Source: Pristiophorus japonicus (taxonomy: Eukaryota). From it: a DNA stretch of 64,000 bases. The notes under the pieces were generated by a model, which was not told where the DNA came from, searched no databases, and saw nothing but the letters and a program-made list of their open reading frames with translations. Where the stretch lies: the NCBI RefSeq assembly GCF_044704955.1, contig NC_091990.1, positions 177,568,001-177,632,000 on the forward strand, given 5' to 3'. Shown piece after piece: positions 19,043-49,966 of the stretch; position 1 is the first letter of the stretch; each line of letters begins with the position of its first letter. Both the position numbers and the translations under genes were made by a program.

Positions 19043-19359
19043 TCAAAACTGAAGCAGGAAACTGCGTTCTGTAGGTGATGTGTTTGAACTTGTCCGCGTG
19101 ACTTTAATCTTGTATTCCATTTGATCATCATCGGCACTTGCAGTGAAAGTTAATTCTGCGAACTTGAAATATGTGTCCTCGATAGATTCTTCTATAGTCA
19201 CTCCACATTTGTCATTTGACTCAATTATTGCCTCTCCTCTGTACCATTCTACCTTAATATCTTTTGGAAAATATGCACATATATTACAGCTTAAAGTCAC
19301 CTCCTCTCCTTGTGTCAGGTCTGAACAGCATATGATATTAGGTACAACAGGAGGGGCTC
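19043..19359 (-). CDS. Gene B post-TM Ig C1-like domain 5, ending in a stop codon
   Basis: Acceptor ttcatttcag|; GAPPVVPNIICCSDLTQGEEVTLSCNICAYFPKDIKVEWYRG...ELTFTASADDDQMEYKIKVTRT...ERSFLLQF*. A gtaatt donor follows 2 nt after the TGA. Confidence 0.8.
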
Positions 19360-19516
19360 CTGAAATGAAGTAGAAAGACAAGTTTAGCCATGCAATAAAT
19401 TAATTAATTTATGTATTAACTTAGAACACATTTCTTTTAAAAGTACGTTTCTACCGGACATCCTTTCACCACTGCTTTTACTTTGTAATTCTTACAATTA
19501 CACTCAAATTAATTAG

Positions 19517-22500
19517 TGTGTTCCTAACACAGATGAGACTGCACACAGGGAGGTTAAAGTAACAGTGACCTCAGTCTTTATTAAGACACTCCAGAGTGAG
19601 GAACAGGCCTCAGGGGCCGGCTTATATACAGTGCTCCCAAGGGATGCTGGGATCCTTGGAACTTCAGGGGATGCGTTCCCTGGTGGCGGAACATGGGAGT
19701 GCATGCTTTACAGATACACAACATCACTCCCCCACAAAGTCAAAGTGAAAACTATTTACAAGGTGAGGCGGTCGGGAGCCTTTCTTTCCCTGGTGGACCA
19801 CCTCAGTACAAATGTCTGTTCTGGTGTGTTGGCTGTGCCTCGCTGGGCTGGCGTGTTGTTGGCCCTCCAGGGCTGCAGGGTGAGCCTGGCCTTGCTGGGC
19901 TGTTGGGCATGATGGGTTCAATTTCCTGGTCCGGGGCAGTGTCATTGATCATTTGGGTGTGTATTGTGGGCTCGACAAAAGGTGGTGTCTGCTGTGGGTT
20001 GTTCAGGGCAGTCTGTGAACCGCAGCCTCGCTTAGTCCAGGTGCTTTCTGCAAATTTGTCCATTGTCTAGTTTGACTACAAACACCCTATTCCCTTCTTT
20101 AGCTATCATCTTGCCCGCGATCCACTTGGGACCATGTCCATAGTTTAGCACATACACAGGGTCATTCAGATCAATTTCCCGTGACACAGTGGCGCGACCA
20201 TCGTTTACATTTTGTTGCTGCCGCCTGCTCTCTACCTGATCATGCAGGTTGGGGTGAACCAGCAAGAGTCTGGTTTTAAGTGTTCTTTTCATGAGTAGCT
20301 CAGCCGGGGGCACCCCTGTGAGCGACTGGGGTCTCGTGCAGTAGCTGAGCAGTACTCAGGACAGGCAGGTTTGGAGTGAGCCTTCTGTGACTCGTTTAAG
20401 GCTCTGTTTGATTGTTTGTACTGCCCACTCTGTCTGCCCATTGGAGGCTGGTTTAAACGGGGCCGAGGTGACATGTTTGATCCCATTGTGGGTCATGAAT
20501 TCTTTAAATTCGGCACTGGTGAAACATGGCCCGCTGTCACTGACCAGTATGTTAGGCAGGCCGTGGTGGCAAACATGGCCCTCAGGCTTTCAATGGTGGC
20601 AGTGGAGGTGCTTCCCGACATTATTTCACATTCAATCCATTTTGAAAAAGCATCCACCACCACCAGGAACATTTTACTGAGAAACGGGCCCGCATGGTCG
20701 ACATGGATCCTCGACCATGGTCTGGAGGGCCAGGACCACAAATTTAGTGGTGCATCTCTGGGCGGGTTGCTCAACTGAGCACACAGGCTGCATTGCCGTA
20801 CACAGGACTCTAAGTCAGAGTCGATACCGGGCCACCACACGTGGAATCTGGCTATCGCTTTCATCATTATTATACCTGGGTGTGGGCTGTGGAGATCTGA
20901 GATGAACGTCTCCCTGCCCTTTTTTGGTAGCACTACGTGGTTACCCTACAACAGGCAGTCTGCCTGAATGGACAGCTTGTCTTGTCGCTGCTGGAACGGC
21001 TTGATTAGCTCTTGCATTTCAACGGGGATGCTGGCCCAGCTCCCATACAGTACACAGTTTTTTACTAGGGACAGCAGAGGATCTTGGTCCAAGTCCTAAT
21101 CTGGCAGGCCGTGACAGGTGATTTATCATTTTCAAACACTTCAATGACCATCAACAAGTCTGCGGGCTGCGCCACCATCAACAAGTTTGCAGGCTGCGGC
21201 AGTTAAACCCCCGTGGTGGGCAATGGTAGCCGACTGAGAGCATCCACACAGTTCTCGGTGCCTGGCCTGTGGCGATGATATAGTTATACGCTGATAGCGC
21301 GAGTGCCCACCTTTATATGCGGGCTGAGGCATTAGTATTTATCCCCTTGTTTTCAGCGAACAGGGATATGAGGGGTTTCCAGCTCAAATTTGAGGCCAAA
21401 CAGGTACTGATACATTTTCTTTACCCCGAACACACACGCTAATGCCTCTTTCTCAATCATGCTGTAGGTCCTCTCGGCCTTAGACAAGCTCCTGGAGGCA
21501 TAGGTGAAAGGTTGCAACTTCCCCACAACGTTAACTTGTTGTAATACACACCCGACTCCGTACGATGACGCATCACATGCTAGCACAAGTCTTTTTACAC
21601 GGGTTATACAATACAAGCAGCTTGTTGGAGCATAAAATGTTTCTGGCTTTCTCAAAAGCAAATACTTGTTTTTTTTTTCCCATACCCAGTTCTCACCTTT
21701 ACGCAATAACACATGTAGGGGCTCTATGAGGGTGCTTAACCCCGGTAGCATGTTACCAAAATAGTTGAGGAGTCCCAGAAACGACCGCAGCTCCATGACG
21801 TTCTGTGGCCTGGGCACGTTTCTGATAGCCTCTGTCTTGGCGTCTGTGGGCCGAATGCCGTCCGCCGCGATCTTTCTCCCCATAAACTCCACTTCTCTTG
21901 CCATGAAGACGCATTTCAACCTCTTCAGCCGCAGCCCTATGCGATCCAATCACTGGAGGACCTCCTCCACGTTTTGTAGGTGCTCGACAGTGACCTGACC
22001 CGTGACCAATATGTCATCCTGAAAAACCACCGTGCATGGTACCGACTTGAGTAGGCTCTCCATGTGTCTCTGGAAGATCGCTGCAGCTGACCGAATTCCA
22101 AACGGGCATCTGTTGTAGATGAACAGTCCCTTGTGCGTGTTGATGCAGGTGAGGCCCTTCGAAGACTCCTCCAGCTCCTGCGTCATGTAGGTCGAAGTCA
22201 GGTTGAGCTTGGTGAACGTCTTGCCTCCTGCCAGCATCGCAAATAGGTCATCTGCCTTAGGTAGTGGGTATTGGTCCTATAGCAAGAAACGATTAATAGT
22301 TGCTTTATAATCACCACAAATCCTGACTGTGCCATCGCTTTTGAGTACTGGAACAATCGGGCTGGCCCACTCGCTGAATTCCACTGGGGAAATGATGCCC
22401 TCGCGTTGCAGCCTGTCCTGCTCGATTTCCACTCTCTCCCTCATCATGTGAGGTACCGCTCGCGTCTTGTGGTGAATGGGTCGTGCCTCTGGGACCAAGT

Positions 22501-24085
22501 GGATCTGCACCTTCACCCCGGAAAAGTTTCCAATGCCTGGCTCAAAAAGGGAAGGAAATTTGCTAAGAACCTGGGTACATGAGGCCTCATCGACATGTGA
22601 TAGCGCTCGGATGTCATCCCAGTTCCAGCGGATTTTGCCCAGCCAGCTCCTTCCAAGCAGTGTGGGGCCATCACCCGGGACAATCCAGAGTGGCAGTTCG
22701 TGCACCGTGCCCTCGTAGGTGACCTTGACCATGGCGCTGCCCAGGACAGTGATGAGCTCTTTGGTGTACGTTCTCAGTTTCGCGTGGATGGGACTCAGGG
22801 CTGGTCTGAATGCCTTGTTGCACCACCGTCTCTCAAACATCTCGTGATGGATTGGCTAGTGCCATTGTCCAGTTCCATAACTACGGGTAAGCCATTCAAT
22901 TTTACATTTAGCATTATAGGTGGACATTTCGTCGAAAATGTGTGCACCCAGTGTACTTCAGCATCTGCCTCCTCTCTCTGACACTCGAAATTGCTTTGAT
23001 CCACCATGGACTTATCTTCCTCTGCCACGTGGTGGTTAGCAGGTTTTGCAGAGCTTGCAGCTTGTCTGCAAGCTCGTTGGAGATGCCCCATTGTTCCACA
23101 GCTCGTGCAAACATACCCTTTGAAGTGGCATGAATAGGCTGAATGGAAGCCTCCCCAACGCCAACAAGGTGTGAATTGCCTTGAATTCATCCTTTGTTGC
23201 GGATTCTGAGTCATCTGGGTCACCTGAGGCCGACTGGCAGTTGCAGACTCATGGTTTCTGCCCTGTACATTTCTGCTCGCAAACACAGTTCCAGTTAATT
23301 TATGAACATTGCGAGCACTTGTGTGCTAAGAGATTTGTTTGGTGTTATCACTGGTGGACATAAACGCTTGTGCTATCGCAATGGCCTTACTGAGGGTCGG
23401 TGTCTCTACAGTCCAAAGTTTTCGTAGGATGGTCTCGTGGCCAATGCCCAGTACAAAAAAGTCTCTGAGGATCTGCTCCAGGTAGCCATCAAAGTCACAT
23501 TGTCCTGCAAGTCGCCTTAGCTCGGCGACGTAGCTCACCACTTCCTGACCTTCAGATCACTGGCACTTGTAGAACCAATGCCTCGGCATCAGCACACTCT
23601 CCCTCGGGTTAATATGTTCCCGAACCAGTGTACACAGATTCTCATACGACTTATCTGTGGGTTTCACCGGAGCCAGAAGATTCTTCATGAGGCTGTACGT
23701 CGGTGCCCCGCAGACCGTGAGGTGGACCGCTCTCCTTCCCCATCCAGCTCGTTGCCTACAAAGTACTGGTCTAGCCGTTCGACATAGGCTTCCCAGTCCT
23801 CACCCTCAAAGAACTTCTCCAGGATTCCCACATTTTGCTGCATCTTTGGTTGGATTCGTATACTCGTTGCCAGTTTTTGTGTTCCTAACACAGATGAGAC
23901 TGCACTGAGGGAGGTTAAAGTAACAGTGACCTCAGTCTTTATTAAGACACTCCAGAGTGAGGAACAGGCCTTAGGGGCCGGCTTATATACAGTGCTCCCA
24001 AGGGATGCTGGGATCCCTTGGGACTTCAGGGGATACGCTCCTTGGTGGCGGAACATGGGAGTGCATGCTTTACAGATACACAACA
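19517..24085 (-). mobile_element. Full-length degenerate Ty3/Gypsy (Mag-like) LTR retrotransposon in a gene B intron
   Basis: LTRs 19517-19723 and 23878-24085 (about 96% identical). PBS TGGCAACGAG (tRNA-Ser-like), PPT TGGGGGAGTGA. Frameshifted gag (CxxCxxxGHxxxxC knuckle), protease (MELDNG), RT (WASPIV, RICGDYK, FQDD), RNase H (LACDASSYGVG, EKEALA) and integrase (WSRIHVD, VVVDAFSKW). No clean TSD. Confidence 0.93.
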
Positions 24086-24181
24086 TTAATATGTTTTTTT
24101 TTCCACTGGAATCAGATTATTAACCCTTAGATTAGCAGCAACTCAGGAATTTCAGACTCTCCGGGACCAACCATTGTTTTT

Positions 24182-26215
24182 TAAGAACATAAGAAATAGG
24201 AGCTGGAGTAGGCCATTTGGCCCCTCAAGTCTGCTCCGTCATTCAATAAGATCACGGCTGATCTGATCATGGACTCAGTTCCACTTTCCTGCCTGTTCCC
24301 CATAACCCTTTACTCCCTTATTGCTCAAAAATCGGTCTATCTCCGCCTTAAATATATTCAATGACCCAGCCTCCACAGCTCTCTAGGACACAGAATTCAA
24401 TAGATTTACAACCCTCAGAGAACAAATTCCTCCTCGTCTCAGTTTTAAATGGGCGGTCCCTTACTCTGAGACTATGCCCCCTAGTTTTAGCTTCCCCTAT
24501 GAGTGGAAATATCCTCTCTGCATCCACCTTGTCGAGCCCCCTCATTATCTTATGTTCCAATAAGATAACCTCTCATTCTTCTGAACTCCAATGTGTATAG
24601 GCCCAACCTACTCAACCTATCCTCATCAGTTAACCCCCTCATCTCCAGAATCAACCTAGTGAGCCTTCTCTGAACAGCCTCCAATGCAAGTATATCCTTC
24701 CTTAAATACGGAGACCAAAACTGCATGCAGTACTCCACGTGTGGCTTCACCAATACCCTATACAGTTGTAGCAGGACTTCTCTGCTTTTATACTCTATCC
24801 CCCTTGTAATAAAGGCCAACATTCCGTTTGCCTTCCTGATTACTTACTGTACCTGCATACTAACTTTTAGTGTTTCATGCACAAGGACCCCCCAGGTGTC
24901 TCTACTGCAGCACTTTGCAATTTTCCCCATTTAAATTATAATTTGCTTTTCCCTTATTTTTTCCAAAGTGGATAACCTCACATTTTCCCACATTATACTC
25001 CATCTGTCAAATCTTTGTCCACTCATTAGTCTGTCTATATCCCTTTGCAGGTTTTTTGTATTCTCCTCACAATTTGCTTTCCCACCATCTTTGTATTATC
25101 AGCAAATTTGACTACATTACACTCGGTCCCTTCATCCAATTCATTAATATAGATTGTAAATAGTTGAGGACCCAGCACCGACCCCTGCGGCACCCCACCA
25201 GTCACTGTTTGCCAACTGGAAAATGCCCCATTTATCCCAACTCTCTGTTTTCTGTTAGTTAAACAATCCTCTATCCATGCTAATATATTAGCCCCAACCT
25301 CTTGAAATTTTATCTTGTGCAGTAACCTCTTATGTGGCACCTTATCGAATGCCTTCTGGAAATCCAAATACACCACATCCACTGGTTCCCCCTTATCCAC
25401 CCTGCTCATTACATCCTCAAAGAATACCAGCAAATTTGTCAAACATGATTTACCTTTCATAAATCCATGCTGACTCTGCTTGATTGAATCATGCTCTTCC
25501 AAATGGCCCGCTACTGCTTCCTTAATAATGGATTCCAGCATTTTCCCAATGACAGATGTTAGGCTAACTGGTCTATAGTTTCCTGCTTTTTGTCTGTCTC
25601 CTTTTTTAAATAGGGGTGTTACATTTGCGGTTTTCCAATCTGCTGGAACCGCCCCAGAATCCAGGGAATTTTGGTAGATTACAACCAATGCATCCATTAT
25701 CTCTGCAGCCACTTCTCTTAAGACCCTAGGATGTAAGCCATCAGGTCCAGGTGACTTGTCCGCCTTTAGTCCCATTATTTTACCTAGTACTACTTCATTG
25801 GTGATAGTGATTGTATTATGCTCCTCCCTGCCTATAGTCCCTTGAGAATCCACTATTGGGATGGTTTTAAGTGTCTTCTATCGTGAAGACCGATACAAAA
25901 TATTTGTTCAATGTCTCTGCCATTTCCTGTTCTCCATTATTAATTCCCCAGTCTCATTCTCCAGGGGACCAACATTTACTTGAGCCACTCTTTTCCTTTT
26001 GTACCTGTAGAAACTCTTACTATCTGTTTCTATATTTCATGCTAGTTTACTTTCATAATCTATTTTCCCTCTCTTAATCATTTTTTTAATCGTTCTCTGA
26101 TGGCTTTTAAAAATTTCCCAATCCTCTGGCCTCCCATTAGTCTTGGCCACATTGTTTTGAATGTGATACCTCCCTTATTTCCTTAGTTAGCCATGAATGG
26201 TTATCCCTTCTCTTT
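24182..26215 (-). mobile_element. CR1 LINE, 5'-truncated
   Basis: RT motifs [35 protein letters not shown]; 3' tail. Confidence 0.9.
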
Positions 26216-27471
26216 TTACAAATTTTTAGCTCACACGTTCATATTGCAGTAATAAAGCTACCCACAATCGACTAAGTCATCAATCTGAAACCACTAACTC
26301 TGTTTCTCTCTCCACAGATGCTGCCTGACCTGCTGAATATTTCCAGCATTTTCTGTTTATGTGTAACATTTGACTATAGCTACTTTCCTCCTCTTCTGAA
26401 GCCACTGCCGATTGTGGCAGAGTGTTCCACAGCATTGACCATCCTCCAGTAATTCAACTATTCTACACAAGTGCACAACGACAAATGTGAAGGGCGCGCT
26501 GTCCAAGCCTAGTCATGTCTATACCCAATATCTGCACATGTACAATCGCTATCAGAGTCACTGGATAGTGAGCAGGAGCAAGAACTCGAACTGATTTCCC
26601 CCTCCATGGTCCAATTGAAGTGACTCAGTTGTTAAACTCAGCACAGATCAGAAATTGAACCTGGGAGCTTCTGGTCTCTATGGCTTAGCGCTATCTTGGA
26701 CGGTGCCTTTGCCTACATGGCCATCAAGCGAATACATCAGGAAGTAGTTTTAATACTTGAGATTAACTCTATACTACAAAATATATTTTTTGCTATTAAA
26801 AAATTGTTTAACATGACCTTACTTGTCCAATTGCATCTTTCCTCCCCCCACTCATTCTGCCAGCTCCATTTGCTCTTTTTTTTTTACTATTTTCACTTCA
26901 TATCTAAACTATATATATCCTGCTTTCTTTTTAAGGCTTTTGTTTTGTATTTTATCTTCATGGAGGTGAAGGAAATTAGTGCTGGAGCATTTCATGTGGA
27001 AGTTTCAGGGTTAGATGCACAATCACATTCCTTTACCGTGCCTGAAACCCATTAGAGATGTCGGAGATGGGCCTGTAACTATACAAAGTTCACTTGGAAA
27101 TGAGATAGGAGGGAGTGCTCCTGGCCTACTGACTATTTCAGAGAGCCTGATGGGGGTCCAGCAGCAAGCCATAGGATTCCTTAAGGTAAAGGACCCACCA
27201 GTGACTCACTGGATCTTCAGGCCTTGGAGATTTCTGGCTCCCCATCAACAGCTAGAGGCCCCAAGGACGGTTGCCAGGTAAACAGTTACCAACTTTTTTT
27301 GCCAGTTCAAGGCCCTGCTGGGGCTGAGCCTATGCCAGAGGTGCACCTGGGCCATTTTCATGGCCCAGAACACCAAAATAATCTGTTGCTCAGCCTTGAC
27401 AGATATAACACACTTCAGATGCACTACTTCTAACCAATACTGGAGGAGAGGGGGCTAATAAAATCGACCCT

Positions 27472-29650
27472 AACATAAAAACATAGAAACATAGAAATTA
27501 GGTGCAGGAGTAGGCCATTCAGCCCTTCGAGCAGCATCACCATTCAATAAGATCATGGCTGATCATTCAACTTCAGTACCCCTTCCCTGTTTTCTCTCCA
27601 TACCCCTTGATCCCTTTGACCATAAGGACCATATCTAACTCCCTTTTGAATATATCTAATGAACTGGCCTCAACAACTTTCTGCAGTAGAGAATTCCACA
27701 GCTTAACCATTCTCTGAATGAAGAAGTTTCTCCTCATCTCGGTCCTAAATGGCCTACCCCTTATTCTTAGACTGTGACCCCTGGTTCTGGAACTGCCCAG
27801 CCACGGGAACATTCTTCCTGCATCTAACCTGTCCAATCCCATCAGAATTTTGTGTTTTTATGAGATCCCCTCTCATTCTTCTAAACTCCAGTGGATACAA
27901 GCCCAGTTGATCCAGTCTCTCCTCATATGTCAGTCCTGCCATCCCGGGAATCAATCTGGTGAACCTTCGCTGTACACCCTTAATAGCAAAAACGTCCTTC
28001 CTCAGATTAGGGGACCAAAACTGAACACAATATTCCAGGTGTGGCCTCACCAAGGCTCTGTACAACTGCATTAAGACCTCCCTGCTCCTATACTCAAATC
28101 CTCTAGCTATGAAGGCCAACATGCCATTTGCCTTCTTCACCACCTGCTGTACCTGCATGCCAAACTTCAATGACTGATGTACCATGACACCCAGGTTCCC
28201 TTTTCCTACTCTGTCACCATTCAGATAATATTCTGTCTTCCTGTTTTTGCCACCAAAGTGGATAAGCTCACATTTATCCACATTATACTGCATCTGCCAT
28301 GCATTTGCCCACTCACCTAACCTGTCCAAGTCACCCTGCAGTCTCTTATCATCTTCCTCACAGCTCACACTGCCACCCAGCTTAGTGTCATCTGCAAACT
28401 TGGAGATATTACATTCAATTCCTTCATCAAAATCATTGATGTTTATTGTAAATAGCTGGGGTCCCAGCACTGAGCCCTGTGGCACCCCACTAGTCACTGC
28501 CTGCCATTCTGAAAAGGACCCGTTTATTCCGACTCTCTGCTTCCTGTCTGCCAACCAGTTCTCTATCCATGTCAGTACATTATCCCCAATACCATGTGCT
28601 TTAATTTTACACACCAATCTCTGTGTGGGACCTTGTCAAAAGCCTTTTGAAAGTTCAAATACATCACAGCCACTAGTTCTCCCTTGTCCACTCTACTAGT
28701 TAAATCCTCAAAAAATTCTAGAAGATTTGTCAAGCATGATTTCCCTTTCATAAATCCATGCTGACTTAGACCAATCCTGTCACTGCTTTCCAAATGCGCT
28801 GCTATTTCATCTTTAATAATTGATTCCAACATTTTCCCCACCACCTAACCAGTCTATAATTCCCCGTTTTCTCGCTCCTTCCTTTTTTAAAAAGTGGTGT
28901 TACATTAGCTACCCTCCAGTCCATAGGAACTGATCCAGAGTCAATAGAATGTTGGAAAATGATCACCAATGCATCAACTATTTCTAGGGCCTCTTCCTTA
29001 AGTACTCTGGGATGCAGCCTATCAGGCCCTGGGGAATTATCGGCCTTCAATCCCATCAATTTCCTTAACACAATTTCCTGACTAATAAGGATTTCCTTCA
29101 GTTCCTCCTTTTCACTACACCCTCGAACCCCTAGTATTTCCGCAAGGTTATTTTTGTCTTCCTTAGTGAAGACAGATCCAAAGTATTTGTTCAATTGGTC
29201 TGCCATTTCTTTGTTCCCCATTATAAATTCACCTGATTCTGTCTGCAATGGACCCACTTTGGTCTTCACTAATCTTTTTCTCTTCACATATCTATGGAAG
29301 CTTTTGCAGTCAGTTTTTATGTTCCCAGCAAGCTTCCTCTCATACTTTATTTTCCCCCTCCTAATTAGACTCTTTGTCCTCCTCTGCTGAATTCTAAATT
29401 TCTCCCAGTCCTCAGGTTTGCTGCTTTTTCTCACCAATTTATATGCCTCTTCCTTGGATTTAAGACTATCCCTAATTTACCTTGTTAGCCATGGTTGAGC
29501 TACCTTCCCCTTTTTTTTTACTCCAGACAGGGATGTACAATTGTTGAAGTTCATCCATGTAATCTATAAATATCTGCCATTGCCTATCCACTGTCAACCC
29601 TCTAAGTATCATTTGCCAGTCTATCCTAGCCAATTCACGTCTCATACCCA
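27472..29650 (-). mobile_element. CR1 LINE, 5'-truncated
   Basis: RT motifs [10 protein letters not shown] and FADD; (TTTCTATG)n-type tail. Confidence 0.9.
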
Positions 29651-29763
29651 GTCATCTCTTCCAGCCCATCACCACATTTCTCTTGCACATATTAAGATTG
29701 CATAATCAGGTAAGAAGAATCTGATATGTAAGGTAAAGCAAACAACTGAAAATGACCCCTTAC

Positions 29764-30084
29764 CTTTTAGATCAAGTAGAAACTTGCGTTCAGTAGGCGT
29801 TATGGCTATCTTTGGATAAGCAACTTTCATTCTGTATAGGGCTTGATCATCACCAGGGATGGGAGTGAAGGTTAGTTTTGCTGTCTTGAACAGTCCTTGT
29901 TCACTGGCAAATTCTTCCATGCTTATTCTACATTTCTTACTATTTTGGATTATTTTCTCCCCTCTGAACCACTGTACTACTATCTCTCTCGAAAAGAACA
30001 TACTTATGGTACTGTACAAAGTTGCGTCCTGATTTGGTTGAGGGTTTGCAGTGAAAGCAATTTCTGATACTAATGGAAGGAGTG
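29764..30084 (-). CDS. Gene B post-TM Ig C1-like domain 4
   Basis: 321-nt phase-1/1 exon (tttatttcag| ... |gtaagg): ALLPLVSEIAFTANPQPNQDATLYSTISMFFSREIVVQWFRG...GLFKTAKLTFTPIPGDDQALYRMKVAYP...ERKFLLDLK. Both canonical cysteines are absent. Confidence 0.8.
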
Positions 30085-30342
30085 CTGAAATAAAATAATG
30101 AGAAACAGAGGTGGAGTAAGAAAATACATAAGGAATACTTGAAAGCACTTTTCATATATTATGTTCATTCTTATGAATGTTTCAAATATCTCACAATATC
30201 TCAGAAATTAACTACTGAAATTCGGTGCTACCAACTTATAGCTTAACAGTTCTCTCAATGATCATTACTCCCAGCAAAGTTAACTATGTGCGAAGATGTA
30301 ATTACTGCAGTATAATGTGATCGCCTGAAAGCTTCCTCTTAC

Positions 30343-30669
30343 CTTGAAGGTTAAACTGGAAACTGCGTTCAATGGGTGTTGAGGATAATCTTGTATGAAT
30401 AACTTGAATTCTGTATTCAATCTGATCATCATCAGAGACTGGAGTAAATGTTAATTTTGATGTCTTGTATAGACCATCATCAGAAATGGGCTCTTCCATA
30501 ATCACTCCATCTCCTTTGATCTGTTCTATTGTTTCCTTACCTCTGTACCATTCAACCTTAATCTCTTTTGGGAAGTATGTATGCACACAACAGGACAAAG
30601 TTACTCTGTTTCCTGGTTCAGGGCCAGGACTGCAGGTGATTTCTGATACAGTAGGCGGTAATACAAGTA
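30343..30669 (-). CDS. Gene B post-TM Ig C1-like domain 3
   Basis: 327-nt phase-1/1 exon (ttttgcag| ... |gtaaga): VLVLPPTVSEITCSPGPEPGNRVTLSCCVHTYFPKEIKVEWYRG...DDGLYKTSKLTFTPVSDDDQIEYRIQVIHT...ERSFQFNLQ. Confidence 0.85.
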
Positions 30670-30819
30670 CTGCAAAACACAAATGAATAATCAAGTACAT
30701 TGCACAAAGGTTTTATCACTTCGTTTTTGAAATAAATATACACTTGTATTTTCAAAACAATAATACAATCGGTAGTTATATTTAGTCTACTTCCCCCACT
30801 GCCCCCCCCCCCCCCACCC

Positions 30820-33700
30820 CTGCAGGAGTAGGCCTTTCAGCCCTTTGAGCCTGCACCACCATTCAATAAGATCATGGCTGATCATTCAGCTCAGTACCCC
30901 TTTCCTGCTTTCTCTCCATACCCCTTGATCCATTTAGCTGTAAGGGCCATATCTAACTCCCTCTTGAATATATCCAATGAACTGACATTAGCAACTCTCT
31001 GTAGTAGGGAATTCCACAAGTTAACAACTCTCTTCATCTCAGTCCTAAATGGCTTATACCTTATCCTTAGACTGTGTCCCCTGGTTCTGGACTTCCCCAA
31101 CATTGGGAACATTCAGCATCTAACCTGTTCAGTCCCATCAGAATTTTATATGTTTCTATGAGAACACCTCTCATCCTTCTAAACTCCAGTGAATACAGGC
31201 CCAGTCGATCTAGTTTCTCCTCATATGTCAGTCCTGCCATCCCGGGAATCAGCCTGGTGAACCTTCGTTGCACTCCCTCAATAGCAAGAATGTCTTTCCT
31301 CAGATTAGGAGACCAAAACTGAACACAATATTGCAGGTGAGGCCTCACCAAGGCCCTGTATAACTGCAGTAAGACCTCCCTGCTCCTATACTCAAATCCC
31401 CTTGCTATGAAGGCCAACATACCATTTGCCTTCTTCACCGCCTGCTGTACCTGCATGCCAACTTTCAATGACTGATGTACCATGACACCCAGGCCTCGCT
31501 GCACCTCCCCTTTTCCTAATCTGCCGCCATTCAGATAATATTCTGCCTTCGTGTTTTTGCCACCAAAGTGGATAACCTCACATTTATCCACATTATACTG
31601 CATTTGCCATGCATTTGCCCACTCATCTAACCTGTCCAAGTCACCCTGCAGCCTCTTAGCGTCCTCCTCACAGCTCACACCGCCACACAGCTAAGTGTCA
31701 TCCGCAAACTTGGAGATATTACACTCAATTCCTTCATCTAAATCATTAATGTATATTGTAAATAGCTGGGGTCCCAGCACTGAGCCCTGCAGCAACCCAC
31801 TAGTCACTGCCTGCCATTCTGAAAAGGACCCGTTTATCCCGACTCTCTGCTTCCTGTCGGCCAATCAGTTCTCTATCCACATCAGTCATCATCATCATAG
31901 GTAGTCCCTCGAGTCGAGGATGACTTGCTTCCACGTCAAAAAATTCACAGGTGTTTCAATGAGGGACCTAAAATTCCAGGTCCGAACAAAATCTTGAAGG
32001 GTGAAAAATGCCTGTGCGTGGATTTTTTTTAACGTGTGGTGACCGTTGCACACCAGCCACCACACAGGCTCGACAGAGCTAGGTCTTGGTCCAGTAGCAA
32101 GGGTTATCCAAGACGACTGGAGACCAGATCTGCTGCACGGACCTAGTGCGCACACATATCGCAGTGTGGGCTGGGCCCGTGCTGCCCCTGGCCCTCGCCT
32201 CTTCTGGGCCCCGAACTCACGCTTCTCCTGAGCCCCGATCACGTCCCTCTACAATCTCTAACTGCTCCTTCGCTCCGACCTTGCTGCTCCTGCAGTACAT
32301 GCCCATGCTCCAATCACCGACCTGGAACTTGATGACCTCACTCTTCGCTGCCGTTGCTCTCCTGCTCCAGCACTTGCTGCTCCCTGGAATGGTATGCTGC
32401 CACGCTGCCCCTTCCGCTCTCGTCCTGCTCTGATGGTGCTCGCGCCCACGTCAGTACATTACCCCCAATACCATGAGCTTTAATTTTGCACACCAATCTC
32501 TTGTGTGGGTCCTTGTCAAAAACCTTTTGAAAGTCCAAATACACCACATCCACTGGTTCTCCCTTATCCACTCTACTAGTTACATCCTCAAAAAATTCTA
32601 GAAGATTTGTCAAGCATGATTTCCCTTTCATAAATCCATGCTGACTTGGACCAATCCTGTCACTGCTTTCCAAATGCGCTGCTATTTCATCTTTAATAAT
32701 TGATTCCAACATTTTCCCCACTACTGATGTCAGGCTAACCGGTCTATAATTTCCCCGTTTTCTCTCTCCCTTCTTTTTTAAAAAGTGGGGTTACATTAGC
32801 TACCCTCCAGTCCAGAAGAACTGATCCAGAGTCAATAGACTGTTGGAAAATGATCACCAATGCATCCAATATATCTAGGGCCACTTCCTTAATACTCTGG
32901 GATGCAGACTATCAGGCCCTGAGGATTTATTGGCCCTCAATCCCATCAATTTCCCTAACACAATTTCCCACCTAATACGGATTTCCTTGAGTTCCTCCTT
33001 CTCACTAGACCCTCAGTCCCCAAGTATTAGCGGAAGTTTATTTGTGTCTTCCTTCGTGAAGCCAGAACCAAAGTGTTTGTTCAACTGGTCTGCCATTTCT
33101 TTGTTCCCCATTATAAATTCACCTGAATCCAACTGCAAGGGTCCTACGTTTGTCTTTACTAATCTTTTTCTCTTCATATATCTATCAAAGCTTTTGCAGT
33201 CAGATTTTATGTTCCCAGCAAGCTTCCTCTCATACTCTATTTCCCCCCTCCTAATTAGACCCTTTGTCCTTCAATTGTTGAAGTTCATCCATGTGATCTT
33301 TAAATGTTTGCCATTGCCTATTCTCCGTCAACCCTTTATGTATCATTCGCCAGTCTATTCTAGCCAATTCACGCCGCATTCCATCGGAGTTACCTTTCCT
33401 TAAGTTCAGGACCCTAGTTTCTGAATTAACTGTGTCACTCTCCATCTTAATAAAGAATTCTACCATGTTATGGTCACTCTTCCCCAAGGGACCTCGCACA
33501 ACAGGATTGCTAATTAGTCCTTTCTCATTACACATCACCCAGTCTAGGATGGCCAGCCCTCTGGTTGGTTCCTCGACATATTGGTCCAGAAAACTATCCC
33601 TAATACACTCTAGGAAATCCTCCTCCACTGTATTGCTACTAGTTTGGTTAGCCCAATCAATATGTAGATTAAAGTCGCCCATGATAACTGCTGTACCTTT
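30820..33700 (-). mobile_element. CR1 LINE (APE + RT), interrupted by a SINE-like insert
   Basis: MGDFN/SDH endonuclease motifs and RT motifs; insertion at 31887-32445. Confidence 0.9.
31887..32445 (-). mobile_element. Non-coding SINE-like element with an RTE 3' tail
   Basis: 10-bp TSD CCAC(A/G)TCAGT inside the CR1. Tail GTGGAAGCAAGTCATCCTCG...CCTATGATGATG is shared with the RTE copies. Other copies at 550-716 and 48737-49043. Confidence 0.8.
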
Positions 33701-35092
33701 ACCTTAAAACCACTAAATGGGAGGAAAACAATGTCTAAATGCCTCTCCAGTTTTCAAACACCATTAATGCAGGTAGCATTACGTTTTGGTTTCCTTGTAT
33801 CATTTTCCACCTGCTGCAGCGACAACTGCAACTTTCAATCAAGGCGAGGACCGCATTGCCAGTGGCTGAGCAGGCAGATGACGATGTTAATCAGCGTGCA
33901 ATGCTGATTTGATGCCAGCGATTAACTGTGACTGTGACTGTGGTGATTAACTTTTTTGTGCAGACATCTCTCACATTGTTCCACACTGAGGTTCAGGTAG
34001 GAGAATTGCTCCCTGAACAGCCTGGGTGGATATGACTACCTGCCTTTCTCCCCCTTCTTTCCCCTTCCTCTTCCAGCAACTTGTCCTGCTCTGCATCCCC
34101 TCTGTTTATTCTCCAGGTCATGCTATATTCCAAGGGGAATTTCTACTCGTGAGCCCAGGTCTGGCAGCAAATGGTTTGTACAGAAGCCTTGAGTTCAGGA
34201 AAAAGTCCTTCACCACCTGACACCCCACTCCTTGTACTCTTTGGCAATGTCAAACAACTATAGAAAGCACCAGTAGATAGATGTGTACCAACAGCCAGAA
34301 GAAATCAAACAGCTACTAACCTGTATGTAGTTGATGATCCCTTTAAATAGCGCTGCTTGAGGGTCCTCCATGCTGCTGAGCGTGTGTTCAGCTTTGCAAG
34401 GTTACCTGGAGCACTGAGCTCAGAAATGGCTGCACTGGCATCAAATCAGCAATGCACGCTGATTCACATCATGATCTGCCTGCTCTGCATTCTTCTGGCA
34501 GGCATTCACTGTGTGCGTACTAACACCTTCACCAATATGGCGTCCGACGCGATGCGCCACCAAAGTGCGCACCGCAGACGCCATTTTGGAGCTCGAAGGG
34601 CACTCATAGCACCCAAAAGACAGGCACTACAGATCCAAATTTTGAGCCACTTGTTCGTTCAAATATGTAGATCAAATAATACCAATCATTTTCTACTTAA
34701 AGATACTTTACAATAAATATATTTTCGCCAATCTTCACTTTCTGCCCGATAGGTGAAAAATATAATGTTTCAAACATTGCTGTTGCCGATTTTAAAATAC
34801 ACAAACACTAACTGTAACTGCCTGCAGCCAGTTTCTCACCCATTACTCTGATCCAATGTTTAATATATCTTGTCAGAATATTTAACCCAATGATCATAAT
34901 ATAATTTAATCTCGTACTATCAAAAACAGTTAAAAAAAAACTCCACTAGTCAAATACCTCTTACATAGTGCATACAAATTTCCTTCAGCAAATTAAGTTT
35001 ATTAATCACAAGATCCACTCATGACTCCTGTTATGCCTTAATATGTTGAAATACTATAGTGCAAAGGAAACAAATTAAAATATTCCGCTTAC

Positions 35093-35416
35093 CCGGCAGG
35101 ATTAGATTCATACTGCGTTCAACAGATATTGCTGACACACGTGGATGAGTAACTTTAATGCTGTATTCCACTTGATTGTCATCCAAGATGGGACTGAAAA
35201 TTGCTTTTGCAATTATATTGGGCAATCCACTTTCAGAAAATCCCCTTTCCTTCACTATTCCAAAGTTATCTCCATTTATGATTTCCACTTTGTCTCTGTA
35301 CCATTGAACCTCAATGTCTTTTGGAAACACTGTACTTATGGTGCAGAGCAATGTGACTTCTTTTCCTGCCTCAGCATCAGGGCTACAGGTGAGTTCTGAT
35401 ACGCTGGGGGGTGGCA
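35093..35416 (-). CDS. Gene B post-TM Ig C1-like domain 2
   Basis: 324-nt phase-1/1 exon (attccag| ... |gtaagc): VPPPSVSELTCSPDAEAGKEVTLLCTISTVFPKDIEVQWYR...DDNQVEYSIKVTHP. 83/108 residues identical to domain 1 by manual count. Confidence 0.85.
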
Positions 35417-36950
35417 CTGGAATGCAGAAAAAAATGGGGGAAAACATAGATAAAGACCTTCATTATGTCTCAACAATATCTGTTTTAGAAATATGGATAT
35501 CACTTTATTTGTAATGAAGCATATTTCCAGGTTGTAACATACTGAGAGTGCCAGGTTGGCATATCCTGAAACCCACTAGTGTGCTACAATCTTGGAAAAA
35601 TACCCCAAAATACTCAAACATTATTCGTTAATTAAAGTACAGAGTTTCCTGAATTCTACCATTCAACCTCTGTTGTTAAAGTGCCCATGTCTTGCCAATT
35701 TTTCTTTTATGTTATAAAATGTCACTATTACAGCTATCAGCTTTTGACAAGTGGGTTTGCATCAGTTGATAGGAAGAAGCAATGTATTTTAATATTAAAA
35801 CACCAGGCCAGGGTTATAATAAGCTTGAATAATGTCCAGTGTTAATGCGCAATTACAAGTTTAGTGACATCATACAGCCATGAAGACATAATATGAAAGA
35901 TACTCTGTTTTAGTTTAAAGATATTTGCTGCAGCCACACGCAAAAGGCTAAAAGCTCTGTGTAATTGTATTTATTGTAAAGGCAAGTGGTGAACCAAACA
36001 GTTTTTAAAGGGTGAAGTTGAGGTTTGCAATACTTACAACATAAGGATGAACAATCAAGAGATATTTCTGATACATTGGCTAGAAGTTTTCTCAAAATAA
36101 AATTGCAAGTAAATAGATACTTGTACTTTGAACACAATCAAAATTCCCTTTTATTCTAGACTTTTCATGTTAGATTAAAACTACTAAATGGGAGAAAAAC
36201 AATATCTAAATGTCTCTTAGTTTTCAAATGCCATGAATGGTGGCAGTATAAAGTTTTGCTTTCCTTGCATTATTTTCCAAATTATCCAAATTGTTTCATT
36301 CTCACCTTTCCTTCCACATAGCCTTCATCTTGATAACTTTCAAACTTTGTCTTTCCTGCGTTTTTCTCTTTTACTTCGAGGATTTATCCTCACACCACCT
36401 TTACCCGATACCTCTTTATTGCTTATATGAGAAATTGCAATCAAACAAAACCATATATGGCTCTGAGAAGGCACTTAGCCATATAAAAGATAATCTGAAC
36501 CCAGAAATTACTGTTCACAATATTAACTGGTCAATGCTGTCTGCTATTTTAATGCAGGTATTAACCTGTTTATTTTAAATGGATTAATATTCTTGCTAAA
36601 ATAGCAGGCAGGGGAACACTAAACAAACATAAGTGCATATCCACTAATATCACCAACTGTAATTTCTAGGCTTTACATTCTAATGACACGTTAATGAGAT
36701 TTTATAAATGTTCATGCTACCTGTCATCTCATATAAGAAGCTTTATTAAAGGGCCAGCACACTGTGATTGATATATTTTATAAATTTATCTCAATGTTAC
36801 AGGTATCTCAATGTTACAGGTAAGGAGCAAAGAATGTCTGTAGAAAAGACCAAACGGACTGCAATGACACAGGACAACTCTAATAGCAATTATCATATAT
36901 ACTTCACAATTTGAGCTAATTAAAATGCTTGATTTTTCTTTCAAAAGTAC

Positions 36951-37900
36951 GGGCCCAAGTTTCCACATGATTTGCGCCTGATTTTTAGGAGCAACTGGTG
37001 GAGAACGGACTATCTTAGAAATCGCAATTCTCCACATTTTTTTTTCTGCAGTTCTAGTCAGGTAGAACAGTTCTAGTTTAGAACAGAATTTTTTCTTCAA
37101 AAGGGGGCGTGTCTGGCCACTGACGCCTGATTTGAAAGATTCCACAGTGAAAACATACTCCAAACTAAAGTAGAATGGAGCAAGTGAAGATTTTTGTAGA
37201 ACTGAAAAAACCTGTTCTACACATTAAAAAATGAGGCGCAGGTTACAAATTAGGCATCCAGAACGAGGTGGGGGGGGGGGGAAGGGAAGTCATTAAATTC
37301 TACAATCAATCCTTATTTATACTTCTACAAATATTATACAAATAAATCCATCCTGAATAAACATTTATAAGCAAAGAAAAGATTAAATAAACCATCTTCC
37401 TACCTGTGTGAAAGTGCTTCAGCCATCGTTCGAAGGAAACCGCCATTTGTTGCTGCGCAGATGAGGGAGGGGAAGGAGACAGCGGTTTGTTGCCGCAGAG
37501 GGGAGGGAGGGGAAGGAGACAGTGAGAAGGGTAGCCTCAGTGCTGATGTGCTGATGGCAATGTGCTTTTATTAAAAAATGTTCAAAAATTAAACAGCTAC
37601 AAAGAACTACAAAAATGGCCGAGTGCCAATGTTTTCTTCACACTGAGCATGCGCGAACGCTCCAACGCGCACGCGCAGCGTTGACGGCAGAAAAAAACTA
37701 ATTTAAATAGTACCCGCCCCCTCCCACTTACAAAATCGGTGCGAGTGTAGGCTCCGCCCCCTGGGCACCGCGCCAAACAGACAAGGAGCTGCAAAGCGCT
37801 CGAGAATAGCGCGTTTTTTTTCTGGCGCTGTTTTAGGCGTGAAAAACGGGCGCCCAGCTCAGAGGGGCGCCCTTTTTTTATCCTGTGGAAACTTGGGCCC
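36951..37900. mobile_element. Non-autonomous PIF/Harbinger-like element
   Basis: Same TIRs; perfect 3-bp TSD TAC. Confidence 0.85.
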
Positions 37901-38101
37901 TACAAGTCAATCAAGCTACTAAACAATAAGTCAAGCTACTAAAATAAGGTACTTTACAAAAAATATCCTGTCTTCATTTTCTGCCTGATGAGTGAAAAAT
38001 AAAATCAATGATTTATCTTTATTGTTTTTAAAGTTTCTAATATTCCTATCACCAATTTTAAAATGCACTAATACCAGCTGTAACTGCCCTAAGGACACAA
38101 T

Positions 38102-39376
38102 GGCCCGGAATTTGCAGTCAGCAGGGAAGGGAAGGCATTTGCTACTGGCCCCGAATCACAAGGATCTCGCAATCCCTGTGTTGAGAACTTTGGATTTTCC
38201 GTCCTTCAATTCAATGTAGTGGGGATCCCTTTGTGCGAACTGCTGCGATGTCAACAGGCTGTCTAAGCAGCCAATCAAAATGCAGAATTCTCACAGACAA
38301 TGACTAAGGAAATGGATAAGCTCTTAAAGTTCTACGGGCTAAAAATTCAGTATAGCCCGGTTTGAGGTGGTGACACCGCCTGGTCGCTAATTTTAGCGCT
38401 GGATGATGTTTACCGCCTCTAACTGGGACATTCAGTTTTAGCGTCAAGAGGGGAGTGGAGCATGAAGGGAATGAGTCCACACTCCTCTTAGGGCACTAGC
38501 CCCAATTCCTGGGGCGCTAGCGTGTAATCACAACTGAAGTTTTGGCGCTAGGAAACCGCACCCTGTGAAATAAGTTGGAATAAGTGCACAAAAACTAAGT
38601 GGAAATGGAAAAATCGCAACTTATGGACCCCCACCTGCTCAGCCGTCTCCTTATCGCACCCGAAGGTTAGAGAATGGCTGCTTTCACTGTCGCGATTATC
38701 GGCAAGCGCTAAGGCAGGCGAACCCAATGAAGTTCGCCACCACGGTGCTAACGGGGCTTTGCGCGTGAATCTGTGTCACCAAGTGGGTGGTGCCAATGTG
38801 CGCACCGCTAACTGTTAGCGCCACCGGGGAAACTCTACTGAAGTTCCCGGGAGGTGATGCCAAAACGGCGCTCGGTCGATATGTGTCTCGCGGCCCGTTA
38901 GCGCCCCTCTCAGGTGGTAACAGGTGGCACTAAGCAACCGAATTTTGGCCTCTAACTTTTAAAAAATGTAAGAGAGAGCAAAACAAAGATTAGTTCTTAC
39001 ATGGGGAAAAGGCAAACCTGAAATAAAGATGGACAAACTTTAAAAATTTTTTGAAAAGTTTCTTAAAAATTTAAATTTTAATTAAAATGGACAAATGTCA
39101 CACTGAGTAAAAATAAAAAATAAATTTTGCCAGTCTTAATGATTTGACTGATTACACAGATTGCTGGCTCTGTGGGGTGGGGGGTGGGGGGTGCGGGGTG
39201 GGGGAAATGGGGTGTGGGGGCACAGCACAACGTGTTTCCCAGCTGTCAATGACTGATAGAAACTTTGGAATTTCCGCATGCGCCTGAACCAAATCCCGCA
39301 GTTACGGTCAGTTTCAAAGGCAGAATAACAACGAATGCTTCCAGTTCACCATCATGCCGACTGCAAATTCCAGGCC
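38102..39376. mobile_element. Nested Harbinger-like MITEs
   Basis: Outer GGCCCGGAATTTGCAGTC ... GACTGCAAATTCCAGGCC; inner GGGCTAAAAATTC ... GAATTTTGGCC (about 38336-38951). Confidence 0.6.
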
Positions 39377-39619
39377 AACGTCTTCCGCTAGTTTCTCACC
39401 CCATTAAACTGAGCCAATATCTAATACAGCTTGCTGTCAGAATATTCAACATAATCATAATGTTAATCTAATATTTCAAAAAAATGGCTTTAATAAATTA
39501 ACTTCCCTAGTCAACTGCCGTATCTTTCTCATACAGTGCAAAATCAATTTTTCTCCAATCATGCCTTAAAATATTTAAATAGTATAGTGCAATGGAACCA
39601 AATGAAGCTGGACCCTTAC

Positions 39620-39943
39620 CCTGCAGGATTAGCTTCAAACTACGTTCAACAGGTATTGCCGATGCCCGTGGATAAATAACTTTAATGCTGTATTTCACTT
39701 GGTTGTCATCCAAGACGGGAATGAAATTTGCTTTTGCAATTATATTAGGCAATCCATCTTCAGGAAATCGCTCTTCCATCACCATTCCAACGTTACCTCC
39801 ATTTATGATTTCCACTTTGTTTCTGTACCATTGAACCTCAATGTCTTTTGGAAACAACGTACTTATGGTACAGAGCAATGTGACTTCTTTTCCTGGCTCA
39901 GCATCAGGGCTACAGGTGAGTTCTGATACTGTGAGGCGTGGCA
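39620..39943 (-). CDS. Gene B post-TM (predicted cytoplasmic) Ig C1-like domain 1
   Basis: 324-nt phase-1/1 exon (attcag| ... |gtaagg): VPRLTVSELTCSPDAEPGKEVTLLCTISTLFPKDIEVQWYR...DDNQVKYSIKVIYP...VERSLKLILQ. Confidence 0.85.
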
Positions 39944-40017: not shown

Positions 40018-41964
40018 GGGCCCAAGTTTCGGCCTCAGTTGCTCCTGATTTTTTGGAGCAACTGGTGTAGAACAGAGTATCTTAGAAATTCAAATTCCCG
40101 GCATTTAGTTTGCTCCAGTTCTAGTCAGTTAGAACAGTTTCACTTGGGATCAGAATTTTTTTTTCAAAAGGGGGTGTGTCCGGCCACTTACGCCTGTTTT
40201 CAAAGTTTCAGCGGTGAAAAATTACTCCAAACTAACTTAGAATGGAGTAAGTGAAGATTTTTGTACTCTCGAAAAAACCTTGTCTACACTTTAGAAAATC
40301 AGGCGTAGGTTACAAATCAGGCGTAGGGAATGGTTGGGGGGGTGGGGGGTTAAAGGGAAGTTTACAAACAATAAACACTTCAGTTTTACAAATAAAGAGC
40401 CATCGTCAATAATAAATGATAAAAACATCAATAAATCAACCAATAAATCAATCAAAAAAAATTAATAAGAACTAACTTTTTTTTTTAAATCAATAAATAA
40501 AACATTTTCTACTTACCGACTGCAGCACCGGGAGCCCTCCAACAGCGTGCTGGGATGCCCCCCTCAGTGTGTCTCTGTCAGTGTCTCTATCTCTCTGTCT
40601 GTCTGTCTGTGTGTGTCTCTCACTTTCTGTCTGTCAGTGTCTGTGTTTCTGACAGCGAGGGGAGGGGGAAGAGGGTGGTAGAGGGAGAGATGGGGGGGCA
40701 GGGGGAGGGGAGGGAGGGAGGCAGAGGGGGAGGGATGGGGGAGAATGGGGAGGGAAGGGGGAGAAGCGGGAGGGAAGGGGGAGGGGAGAGGAGAAGGGGG
40801 GGAGGAGAAGGGGAAGGGGGGAGGAGAAGGAGAAGGAGGGGGAGGAGAAGGGGAAAGGGGGGGGAGGAGAGGAGAAGGGGAAAGAGGGGGAGGAGAAGGG
40901 GAAAGAGGGGGGAAGAAAGGGAGGGAAAGAGAGGGGGGAAAGAGAGGGGGGGAAAGAGAGGGGGGAAAGAGAGGGGGGAAAGAGAGGGGGGGAAAGAGAG
41001 GGGGAAAGAGAGGGGAGGAATGAGAGGGGGGAAAGAGAGGGGGGAGAGGGGAGGAAAGAGAGGGGGAAAGAGAGGGGGAAAGAGAGGGGGGAAAGGGGGG
41101 GGAAAGAGAGAGGGGGGAAGGAAAGGAGAAGGGGGAAGGAGAAGGGGGAGAAGGGGGAGAAAGGAGGGGGGGAAGGAGGGGGGGGAGGAAAGGAGAAGGG
41201 GGAGGGAGGCTGAATGGGCCAGGCCAGTCCCCAGCACCAGATTTACAGGTAGGCGGCGTTGGGTCGGGTCGGGTCCGGGGTCGGGAGCGCGGGTCGGGTC
41301 GGGGATAGCGCGGGTCGGGGTCGGGAGCACGGGTTGGGTCGGGGGGGCGCAGGGAGGTCGGGTAGAGTCGGATCCGGTCCGGGGGGGTGGCGGTCGGGTC
41401 GGGTCGGGGGGGGGGGGAGGCGGCGGGCAGAGGGAGGTCGGGTCGGATCGGTTCGTGTCGGGGGCAGGGGGAGGGAGGGAGGGAGAGGGAGGTCAGGTCG
41501 GGTGGGGGGGGGGGGGGGGCCGGGTCGGGTCGGGTCCGGGGGCGGGGGAGGGGGAGTTGGGTCGGTGTCGGGGTCGGGTCTGGTCCGGGGGGTGGGGGAA
41601 GCGGGAGTCGAGTTGGGTCGGGAGGAAACAAGAGCTGGGCGTGGGAGGCAGCATTATGCACACAGCCCCAGTGAGGCCATTCGGCCAGGGCTAGGGACTG
41701 TGTGCTTCGGGCCCCCCCCCCCACACAGTTTTGGGCGCCTGGAGCTACTGCACATGCGCGTCCACTGTAGCGCGCATGTGCAGATGTCCCGGCACTGTTT
41801 TCAGCGCAGGGACCTAGCTCCGTCCCCTGCACCGCGCCGAGGGCCAGAGGACCTCCAGGGAGCCGGAGAATCTGTAAGTTTTTTTTAGGCGCACTTTGTG
41901 ACGCAAAAAACGGGCATCCAGGTCGGGGCTGCGCCGTTCTAGGCGCGGCCCGAAACTTGGGCCC
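40018..41964. mobile_element. Non-autonomous PIF/Harbinger-like element with GA-rich and (GGGTC)n core
   Basis: TIRs GGGCCCAAGTTTCGG ... CCGAAACTTGGGCCC; TSD TAT/CAT; paralogous empty site at about 35477. Confidence 0.85.
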
Positions 41965-42886: not shown

Positions 42887-42994
42887 CTGTTTGACGCTTT
42901 TTGATGTAACAGTAAAATCCAGCAACAAAAAATGCACCAATTAATACAACTAAAACTCCAACAATTGCTCCGACTGAGGTAGTGCTCTTTGAAT
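42887..42994 (-). CDS. Gene B transmembrane exon
   Basis: 108-nt phase-1/1 exon (ttttatttgcag| ... |gtaatg): DSKSTTSVGAIVGVLVVLIGAFFVAGFYCYIKKRQT. About 23 hydrophobic residues followed by a KKR stop-transfer signal. Not in the ORF track. Confidence 0.85.
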
Positions 42995-47566: not shown

Positions 47567-47887
47567 CTGTGACAACAATTTGAGCTTCCAATTTAGTGGC
47601 ATTAGGATGAGACGGGTGTTTCACAATGCATCGGTAATTAATACCATCATCTTCGAGGGTTGCTGCAATATATATTTGACTGGATTGATTAAATGTTCCA
47701 TCATCATTTCTAACCAGTCCACCTCCAGAGTCCTTGCTTGTAACACTTTCCGTTTTCCCATGTGATAACTTTTCCCAGCGGATATCTAGCTGCTTGGGAT
47801 AGAATCCAGTAACGTCACATCTCACAGACCCATTTGAGCCGTTTGGGATCGTAACCCGTTCAGTGGACAAGCTGATCTTTGGTCGAG
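47567..47887 (-). CDS. Gene B extracellular Ig C1-set exon
   Basis: 321-nt phase-1/1 exon (ttttgtacacag| ... |gtatgt): ARPKISL...VRCDVTGFYPKQLDIRW...NDDGTFNQSS...YRCIVKHPS. Canonical C1 motifs CxVxGFYP and YxCxVxH; four NxS/T sequons. Confidence 0.9.
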
Positions 47888-49861: not shown

Positions 49862-49966
49862 CTTTGCAGGAAAAAAAGTTTGAAAAACATTATAAAACAT
49901 CTCATATCATGATTACAAACAGAAGAATTATCACCTCAAATTAAAATATATTAGACATGCTAGTAT

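Follow-up and report, generated by a model that had tools for sequence, protein, structure and literature searches.

The 64,000-nucleotide stretch of Pristiophorus japonicus contig NC_091990.1 analyzed here (positions 177,568,001 to 177,632,000, hereafter the window) carries on its minus strand a gene for a B7-H6-family protein, in which a V-C1 ectodomain and one transmembrane (TM) helix are followed by five C1-like domains (D1–D5) that lack the F-strand cysteine. These domains are predicted to fold in the cytoplasm without a disulfide and probably form a multivalent scaffold that binds proteins beneath the membrane. C1-set domains build antibodies, T-cell receptors and MHC molecules; they are extracellular or lumenal, carry a disulfide between the B and F strands, and are regarded as domains of the secretory pathway. 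To our knowledge, a C1-type domain is not normally expected in the cytoplasm.

A six-frame scan of the window placed five immunoglobulin (Ig)-like frames within 19043–39943, behind V, C1 and TM exons. The V-set exon (49514–49861, minus strand, as are all exons given here; Pfam V-set E 4e-7) encodes a B7-H6-like domain with both cysteines, two sequons and the FG-loop TPLK of human B7-H6, and is followed by a membrane-proximal extracellular C1-set exon (47567–47887; Pfam C1-set E 2e-9) with both cysteines and four sequons. The TM exon (42887–42994) encodes a helix and then YIKKRQT. Behind it lie D1 (39620–39943), D2 (35093–35416), D3 (30343–30669), D4 (29764–30084) and D5 (19043–19359), the last containing the stop codon. 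D2 is a recent duplicate of D1 (77% amino-acid identity), and the models of horn shark and sevengill shark each contain a single domain of this type. All these exons are in phase 1 with AG/GT ends, and together they join into a single open frame of 796 amino acids with a TGA stop at 19043. The UniRef entry P0001 (Pristiophorus japonicus, "CD276 antigen-like", 822 amino acids) is the identical sequence plus a leader; the leader exon gave no tblastn match in the window, including the 14 kb that precede the V exon (49862–64000), and is probably located beyond it.

Exon joins were read from contig pieces in four sequencing runs, in which the joints recovered were dominated by repeat-derived ones. 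Contigs of runs X10 and X11 join D2, D3 and D4 at the predicted boundaries (D4 within one base); the library type of these runs is not on record, their contigs differ from the window by 0–1 letters per exon, and they possibly derive from the window's own source. In run X1, a more divergent contig links a D1-like exon with D3 and D4, and in X5 a contig links D3 with D4.

The cysteine pattern reported in an earlier sequence-only reading of this DNA is confirmed at every site. The F strands of D1–D5 read YSI, YSI, YRI, YRM and YKI (cysteine in 0/5), and the B strands TLLC, TLLC, TLSC, TLYS and TLSC (cysteine in 4/5); an A-strand cysteine occurs in four domains (ELTC, ELTC, EITC and, in D5, IICC). 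D1, D3 and D5 thus have cysteine, cysteine and isoleucine at the A, B and F sites, and D4 has phenylalanine, serine and methionine, with neither canonical nor A-strand cysteines. Both cysteines are kept in V and C1, and the sequon counts are likewise as claimed, with six before the TM helix and one behind it (NTSP, in D5). Further cysteines that the reading did not list are D3 C27, D4 C51 and D5 C11, C27 and C51, which bring D5 to five in total. The motifs described as conserved hold less strictly than claimed, as D1/D2 read LFPK/VFPK and D4 reads FFSR, WFR and GDDQALY; the C-strand tryptophan is present in 5/5 post-TM domains. The claimed loss of disulfide and glycan sites stands for the F-strand cysteine, missing in 5/5 domains, but not for the sequons: those of the ectodomain exceed chance (6 vs 2.0 in shuffles, P=0.006), whereas the single post-TM sequon against 2.7 expected (P=0.22) is no significant depletion.

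D1–D5 are likely cytosolic because the protein has a predicted signal peptide, a single TM helix (residues 258–279, hydropathy 2.7), basic residues (KKR) directly behind it and, in the hydropathy scan, no second hydrophobic segment, the highest post-TM value being 1.5. This predicted type I topology agrees with the cytosolic location proposed earlier, but the cysteine losses then offered in its favor give no independent proof of it. Among 85 relatives (defined below), lysine and arginine are commoner after the TM helix than before it in 68, and sequon enrichment is confined to the part before it, both in line with this topology.

Each of D1–D5 has its best Pfam match in the C1-set family (E 2e-9 to 2e-3, D4 falling under the curated cut-off). 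An AlphaFold2 model of D3, built from an alignment of 26 related domains, adopts a C1-set fold with a mean predicted local distance difference test (pLDDT) of 88.6, and its top matches are beta2-microglobulin and the C1 domains of MHC class II (Foldseek E 4e-6; VIA Z 13.5, root-mean-square deviation 1.9 Å over 95 residues), with titin domains ranking lower (Z 11.8 vs 13.5). The seven-strand fold and the profile match that characterize the C1-set are therefore present in the predicted models, and the B–F disulfide is absent. In the full-length model, five strand-rich post-TM domains have block pLDDT values mostly of 70–88 and a predicted template modeling score of 0.34, as for independent beads, so that a beads-on-a-string arrangement is predicted. 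A two-copy D3 complex prediction, in which the alignment was unused, gave a score of 0.02 and a mark of 0.32 and speaks neither for nor against self-association. D1–D5 thus share their Pfam family, and D3 its structural matches, with the C1-set (beta2-microglobulin, MHC II alpha2/beta2, Ig constant domains, tapasin, SIRP), but they differ in lying behind a TM helix, where they are predicted to be cytosolic, and in lacking the F-strand cysteine. Ig arrays in the cytosol have precedents among I-set proteins, titin being one (PMC6922384); the arrays of titin and obscurin resemble D1–D5 as tandem Ig domains of the cytosol whose cysteines are mostly buried, but theirs are I-set and stand outside any receptor tail, whereas D1–D5 are C1-set-like and form one. 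The horn shark orthologue is auto-named "obscurin-like".

Although UniRef names the protein CD276 (B7-H3), the TPLK loop and a tree with annotated NCR3LG1 proteins favor B7-H6, as judged from sequence. The best PDB match of the V domain is human B7-H6 (E 2e-12), with B7-H3 close (1e-11; phmmer bits 50.4 vs 47.9). A tree of 82 ectodomains, which contained neither human B7-H6 nor B7-H3, places the shark protein in a 37-member clade (support 0.989) together with proteins from alligator, corn snake and sand lizard that carry the annotation NCR3LG1. The architecture of B7-H6/NCR3LG1 is also present, namely an IgV and IgC ectodomain with canonical disulfide cysteines and a single, predicted type I TM helix. 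Five of the 11 human NKp30-contact residues tabulated in PMC3135353 are identical (G83, T127, P128, L129 and K130); in the human complex described there, the FG-loop TPLK supplies both interface hydrogen bonds and the salt bridge. Human B7-H6 is thus alike in its V and C ectodomain, type I TM helix and TPLK loop, but unlike in its BC-loop contacts and in its cytoplasmic tail, which PMC2715080 describes as homologous to GAG polyprotein with linear motifs. No Gag-like tail was found in the shark protein, whose tail consists of the five C1-like domains, nor was the cytoplasmic B30.2 domain of butyrophilins, all post-TM exons matching Ig families only in Pfam, as does P0001. Since reptile proteins annotated NCR3LG1 carry C1 arrays too, the Gag tail is not family-wide.

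A profile of the five domains, run as an exhaustive search, recovered related proteins, of which the best 150 of 593 matches were taken. From 165 proteins, 79 failed a filter for one internal TM helix with at least 200 residues behind it, and removal of the isoform P0004 left 85; domains below 15 bits or not spanning strands B–F were left uncounted, and the set, picked with the shark tail profile, is biased toward such proteins. These 85 relatives carry 2–14 post-TM C1-like domains each. The 30 proteins looked up come from chimaera, sharks, rays, coelacanth, lungfish, bichir, reedfish, caecilian, newts, frogs, turtle, alligator, snake and lizard, and the orthologues in Heterodontus and Heptranchias have four post-TM domains each. 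The order of domain types is conserved throughout jawed vertebrates. The post-TM domains are slightly closer to pre-TM Ig domains (22.0% mean identity) than to Ig heavy-chain C1 domains (19.8%) in 446/503 cases; an origin of the array from the receptor's own C1 exon is not claimed, as the deep domain tree gives no resolution.

Both cysteines are found in 93/107 pre-TM but only 255/503 post-TM domains (Fisher p 6e-13, inflated by relatedness), the remaining post-TM domains having the B cysteine only (80), the F cysteine only (41) or neither (127). The cytosol therefore appears to relax the disulfide without forcing its loss, and 82/85 relatives keep at least one two-cysteine post-TM domain, only the three shark orthologues being without any. 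Nor is such loss limited to domains behind the TM helix, because 14/107 pre-TM Ig domains have lost the B-strand cysteine (to S, A or G), two of them lacking both (examples among the 14 are P0031, P0039, P0093 and P0095). The expectation that cysteine loss tracks post-TM position accordingly holds as a trend, the pair being less conserved behind the membrane, but fails as a rule. Sequons follow suit, with 264 vs 146 in shuffles before the TM helix and 389 vs 351 behind it. Taken together, the cytosolic side would relax both disulfide cysteines and sequons and purge neither. As a separate observation, frog and other arrays (e.g. P0017, P0050 and P0069) alternate a two-cysteine domain with a cysteine-free one (L/V at B and F), which suggests a repeated two-domain unit.

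Related C1 domains also occur in proteins of other architecture. The bichir and reedfish TRIM proteins P0164 and P0184 (733 amino acids each) combine RING, B-box and coiled coil with three C1 domains, which stand at the usual place of B30.2 and are up to 76% identical to post-TM domains of reedfish B7-H6-like proteins. The frog Pseudophryne protein P0007, a single gene model, joins a PYRIN domain to five C1-like domains. No internal TM helix was detected in P0164 or P0007. In the domain tree, the C1 domains of these fusions nest among the post-TM domains; they mostly keep both cysteines and are not of the type found at the fourth position of the receptor arrays. Weak NOV_C and PH matches on the shark protein P0217 proved to be repeat-summed noise with no passing stretch.

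The disulfide-free, C1-derived family that had been proposed was found by profile search and tree as a 39-member sub-family. In FastTree trees of 610 domains (~104 columns, midpoint root), the post-TM domains of the three shark orthologues, 13 in all, group as a single clade (0.94) inside a larger one of 39 members (0.83), in which the F-strand cysteine occurs in 0/39; the other members of the larger clade sit at about the fourth position of 6–8-domain arrays in other B7-H6-like proteins. Among the 26 members from outside the orthologues, the F site is V in 12, M in 8, I in 3, L in 2 and A in 1; the B site is cysteine in 25, and the A site is C in 13, S in 7, I in 2, A in 2, V in 1 and T in 1. 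The F-cysteine loss thus appears to be one event that predates the split of cartilaginous and bony fishes and was later copied. As D1–D5 would descend from one ancestral F-cysteine-free domain, their five losses are not independent, and the argument that they independently support adaptation to the cytosol falls away, all the more with two-cysteine post-TM domains kept in nearly all relatives.

The history that emerges would start from an ancestral jawed-vertebrate B7-H6 with 6–8 distinct post-TM C1 domains, the fourth of which already had a hydrophobic residue (V/M/I/L/A) in place of the F-strand cysteine. This shark paralogue may have retained the fourth domain alone and amplified it four- to five-fold, D1–D5 being likely tandem copies of that one ancient domain, while another shark paralogue lineage would have amplified domain 1. 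Proteins of the latter lineage (P0213, P0214 and P0217) contain a domain with best matches exclusively of the domain 1 type, in three copies in P0213 and P0217 and with one scored in P0214, and these copies carry tryptophan at the B site and isoleucine at the F site. A further B7-H6-like V exon, from a neighboring paralogue, lies in the same window (78–413, minus strand; 52% identity to the V exon of this gene and 68% to catshark P0216/P0217), so B7-H6-like genes appear to form a tandem cluster. The closest retrieved relatives of that exon, catshark P0216/P0217, repeat domain 1 without the B and F cysteines.

The post-TM domains are 65–84% identical to those of the other two sharks, compared with 75–88% for the ectodomain. 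Differences among the three sharks avoid the 30 most conserved family columns (34/215 vs 150/533, p 3.5e-4, with D3–D5 pooled with D1), and the core is spared individually in D3 (p 0.04), D4 (p 0.002) and D5 (p 0.02). The ratio of non-synonymous to synonymous rates (dN/dS) is 0.27–0.54 for nine older paralogue pairs. This pattern is read as conservation of the core with rapid change at the surfaces and, in D1/D2, relaxed constraint or possibly decay.

With no enzyme domain and nothing beyond the final strand of D5, the tail most likely serves in binding, and a modular binding role in the cytosol is further suggested by the TRIM/PYRIN fusions, the conserved domain order and the amplification of a single domain type in each paralogue. 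In the proposed mechanism, the ectodomain would engage an NKp30-type receptor on killer lymphocytes, as family and contact residues suggest, and the array would bind a cytosolic partner with higher avidity; such binding could control how the ligand clusters, stays at the surface or is turned over. Several points weigh against this picture. Both the scaffold role and its partner are putative. The NKp30 contacts T59, S60, M61, G62, F82 and V125 differ (6/11), the join of TM to D1 is based on gene models and phase, as the contig stretch examined did not reach it, and support is weak (0.43–0.56) for the node at which the shark domains meet their nearest relative. Gene-model isoforms that skip the TM exon (bichir P0014 and caecilian P0175) indicate that some arrays could be secreted. 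Constraint on the recent copies is also low: dN/dS between D1 and D2 is 0.92 (8.5 synonymous, 27.5 non-synonymous), core columns are not spared in D1 or D2 (p 0.7 and 0.9), and the cross-species changes listed, 29 of which were classified with 238 further rows in the same table, comprise 4 synonymous and 14 non-synonymous in D4, about neutral, and 2 and 9 in part of D3.

Rather than a scaffold, the array could be an intracellular sensor or decoy that recognizes a cytosolic ligand of pathogen or stress origin and thereby activates the ectodomain from within, a reading that we consider rather unlikely. B30.2 acts in this way in butyrophilin 3A1, TRIM5/TRIM21 and pyrin. Arrays of related C1 domains stand in all three places taken by B30.2, behind a B7-type TM helix, after RING-Bbox-coiled-coil and after PYRIN, so the host architectures are the same, but the module there is B30.2 (PRY-SPRY) and here a tandem C1-set array, which makes this a matter of analogy and not of membership. 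The variable domain number among the 85 proteins, the different modules amplified in different paralogues and recent dN/dS values near 1, which fit fast surface change over a conserved core, are all consistent with a sensor. However, its ligand and pocket would be hypothetical, and the TRIM/PYRIN fusions use other members of the family. On the same analogy, and just as tentatively, tandem cytosolic C1 domains might be an interchangeable and so far unrecognized module for intracellular recognition in jawed-vertebrate immunity, a counterpart of B30.2. Ancestral B7-H6 would have used it to sense inside the cell and signal outward to NKp30, TRIM and PYRIN proteins would have captured it for ubiquitination and inflammasome signaling, shark paralogues would have amplified single modules for avidity, and in the human lineage the Gag-like tail would stand in its place.

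The proposal that the free A- and B-strand cysteines serve in redox sensing, metal binding or acylation is improbable and finds no support in the related domains. The B-strand cysteine does persist in 25/26 of them although its partner is absent in 26/26, A-strand cysteines are commoner in domains with the B cysteine only (34/80) than in two-cysteine domains (24/255), and D5 is rich in cysteines. The A site, however, is cysteine in only 13/26, and 12 of the 13 domains with S, I, A, V or T there keep the B cysteine; the association with B-only domains is mostly the effect of one clade; and D4, which lacks both cysteines, spares its core columns most clearly. This lack of co-variation argues against an A–B disulfide or a two-cysteine metal site. 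In the beta2-microglobulin register, which we take to apply here, the A and B sites face the core, which likewise counts against sensor cysteines. The A site apparently is a small position within the buried core, where the remaining cysteines probably lie as well and do not act as sensors, and core packing may account for the persistence of the B cysteine. In titin M-band Ig domains, most cysteines are similarly buried and follow no conserved pattern (PMC6922384).

It is very unlikely that D1–D5 are extracellular or lumenal, through skipping of the TM exon or a reversed topology, with an alternative A–B strand disulfide. Skipping would preserve the frame, all exons being phase 1, TM-less isoform models exist in two relatives, and about half of the post-TM family domains retain both canonical cysteines; yet the TM exon is included in all four shark models, sequons are not enriched behind it, and the A and B cysteines vary separately. 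Equally remote is the view of the duplicated exons as relaxed or decaying neutral spacer without a specific role: a dN/dS near 1, which the sequence-only reading had named as a sign of decay, is indeed seen between D1 and D2, whose core columns are unspared, and approached in the listed D4 changes, but the older pairs lie well below it, the cores of D3–D5 are spared, the exons are joined in contigs, and the frames are open in three shark genera at identities near that of the ectodomain.

The interest of the locus sits in the cytoplasmic C1 array; by itself, the loss of the cysteine counts for little, being a single old substitution that was copied. A C1 family behind a B7-H6-like membrane anchor, from chimaera to lizards and alligators, would revise the role of the ancestral NKp30 ligand and the origin of the human Gag-like tail, and it offers a testable parallel to inside-out sensing by butyrophilins. 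The 39 disulfide-free domains, with D4 lacking core cysteines altogether, would be natural examples of a cytosol-stable C1 fold that could be used for intrabody scaffolds. Array proteins are already in public annotation, mostly as "uncharacterized". A literature search found no description of cytoplasmic C1/Ig arrays on B7-H6, with the likeliest sources outside its coverage and an earlier mention quite possible, and term searches in the accessible parts of PMC10751288, PMC13262535, PMC6514059 and PMC12227049 gave no mention of cytoplasmic C1 arrays of B7-H6.

Two short features of the protein stand apart from these questions. The C-terminus ERSFLLQF (19046–19070, minus strand) is identical in three shark genera and resembles a class II PDZ-binding end, but it also forms the last strand of D5. 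A cysteine where the TM helix ends on the inner side (GFYCYIKKR, 42887–42920, minus strand) is a possible palmitoylation site and is absent in the horn shark orthologue.

The introns and flanks contain mobile-element remains. A broken element at ~19500–24100, in the D4–D5 intron, has gag- and integrase-like fragments and similar ends and is, judging by its motifs, presumably of the long-terminal-repeat retrotransposon type. Endonuclease and reverse-transcriptase fragments resembling long interspersed nuclear elements lie at ~24300–28900, 30800–33900 and 61000–62700, and contig depth is very high across 30.7–33.9 kb, which fits multi-copy repeats. Two runs of N within 17537–18052 (515 bases in total) lie downstream of the gene, and a purine- and G-rich low-complexity tract occupies 40650–41610 in the TM–D1 intron.

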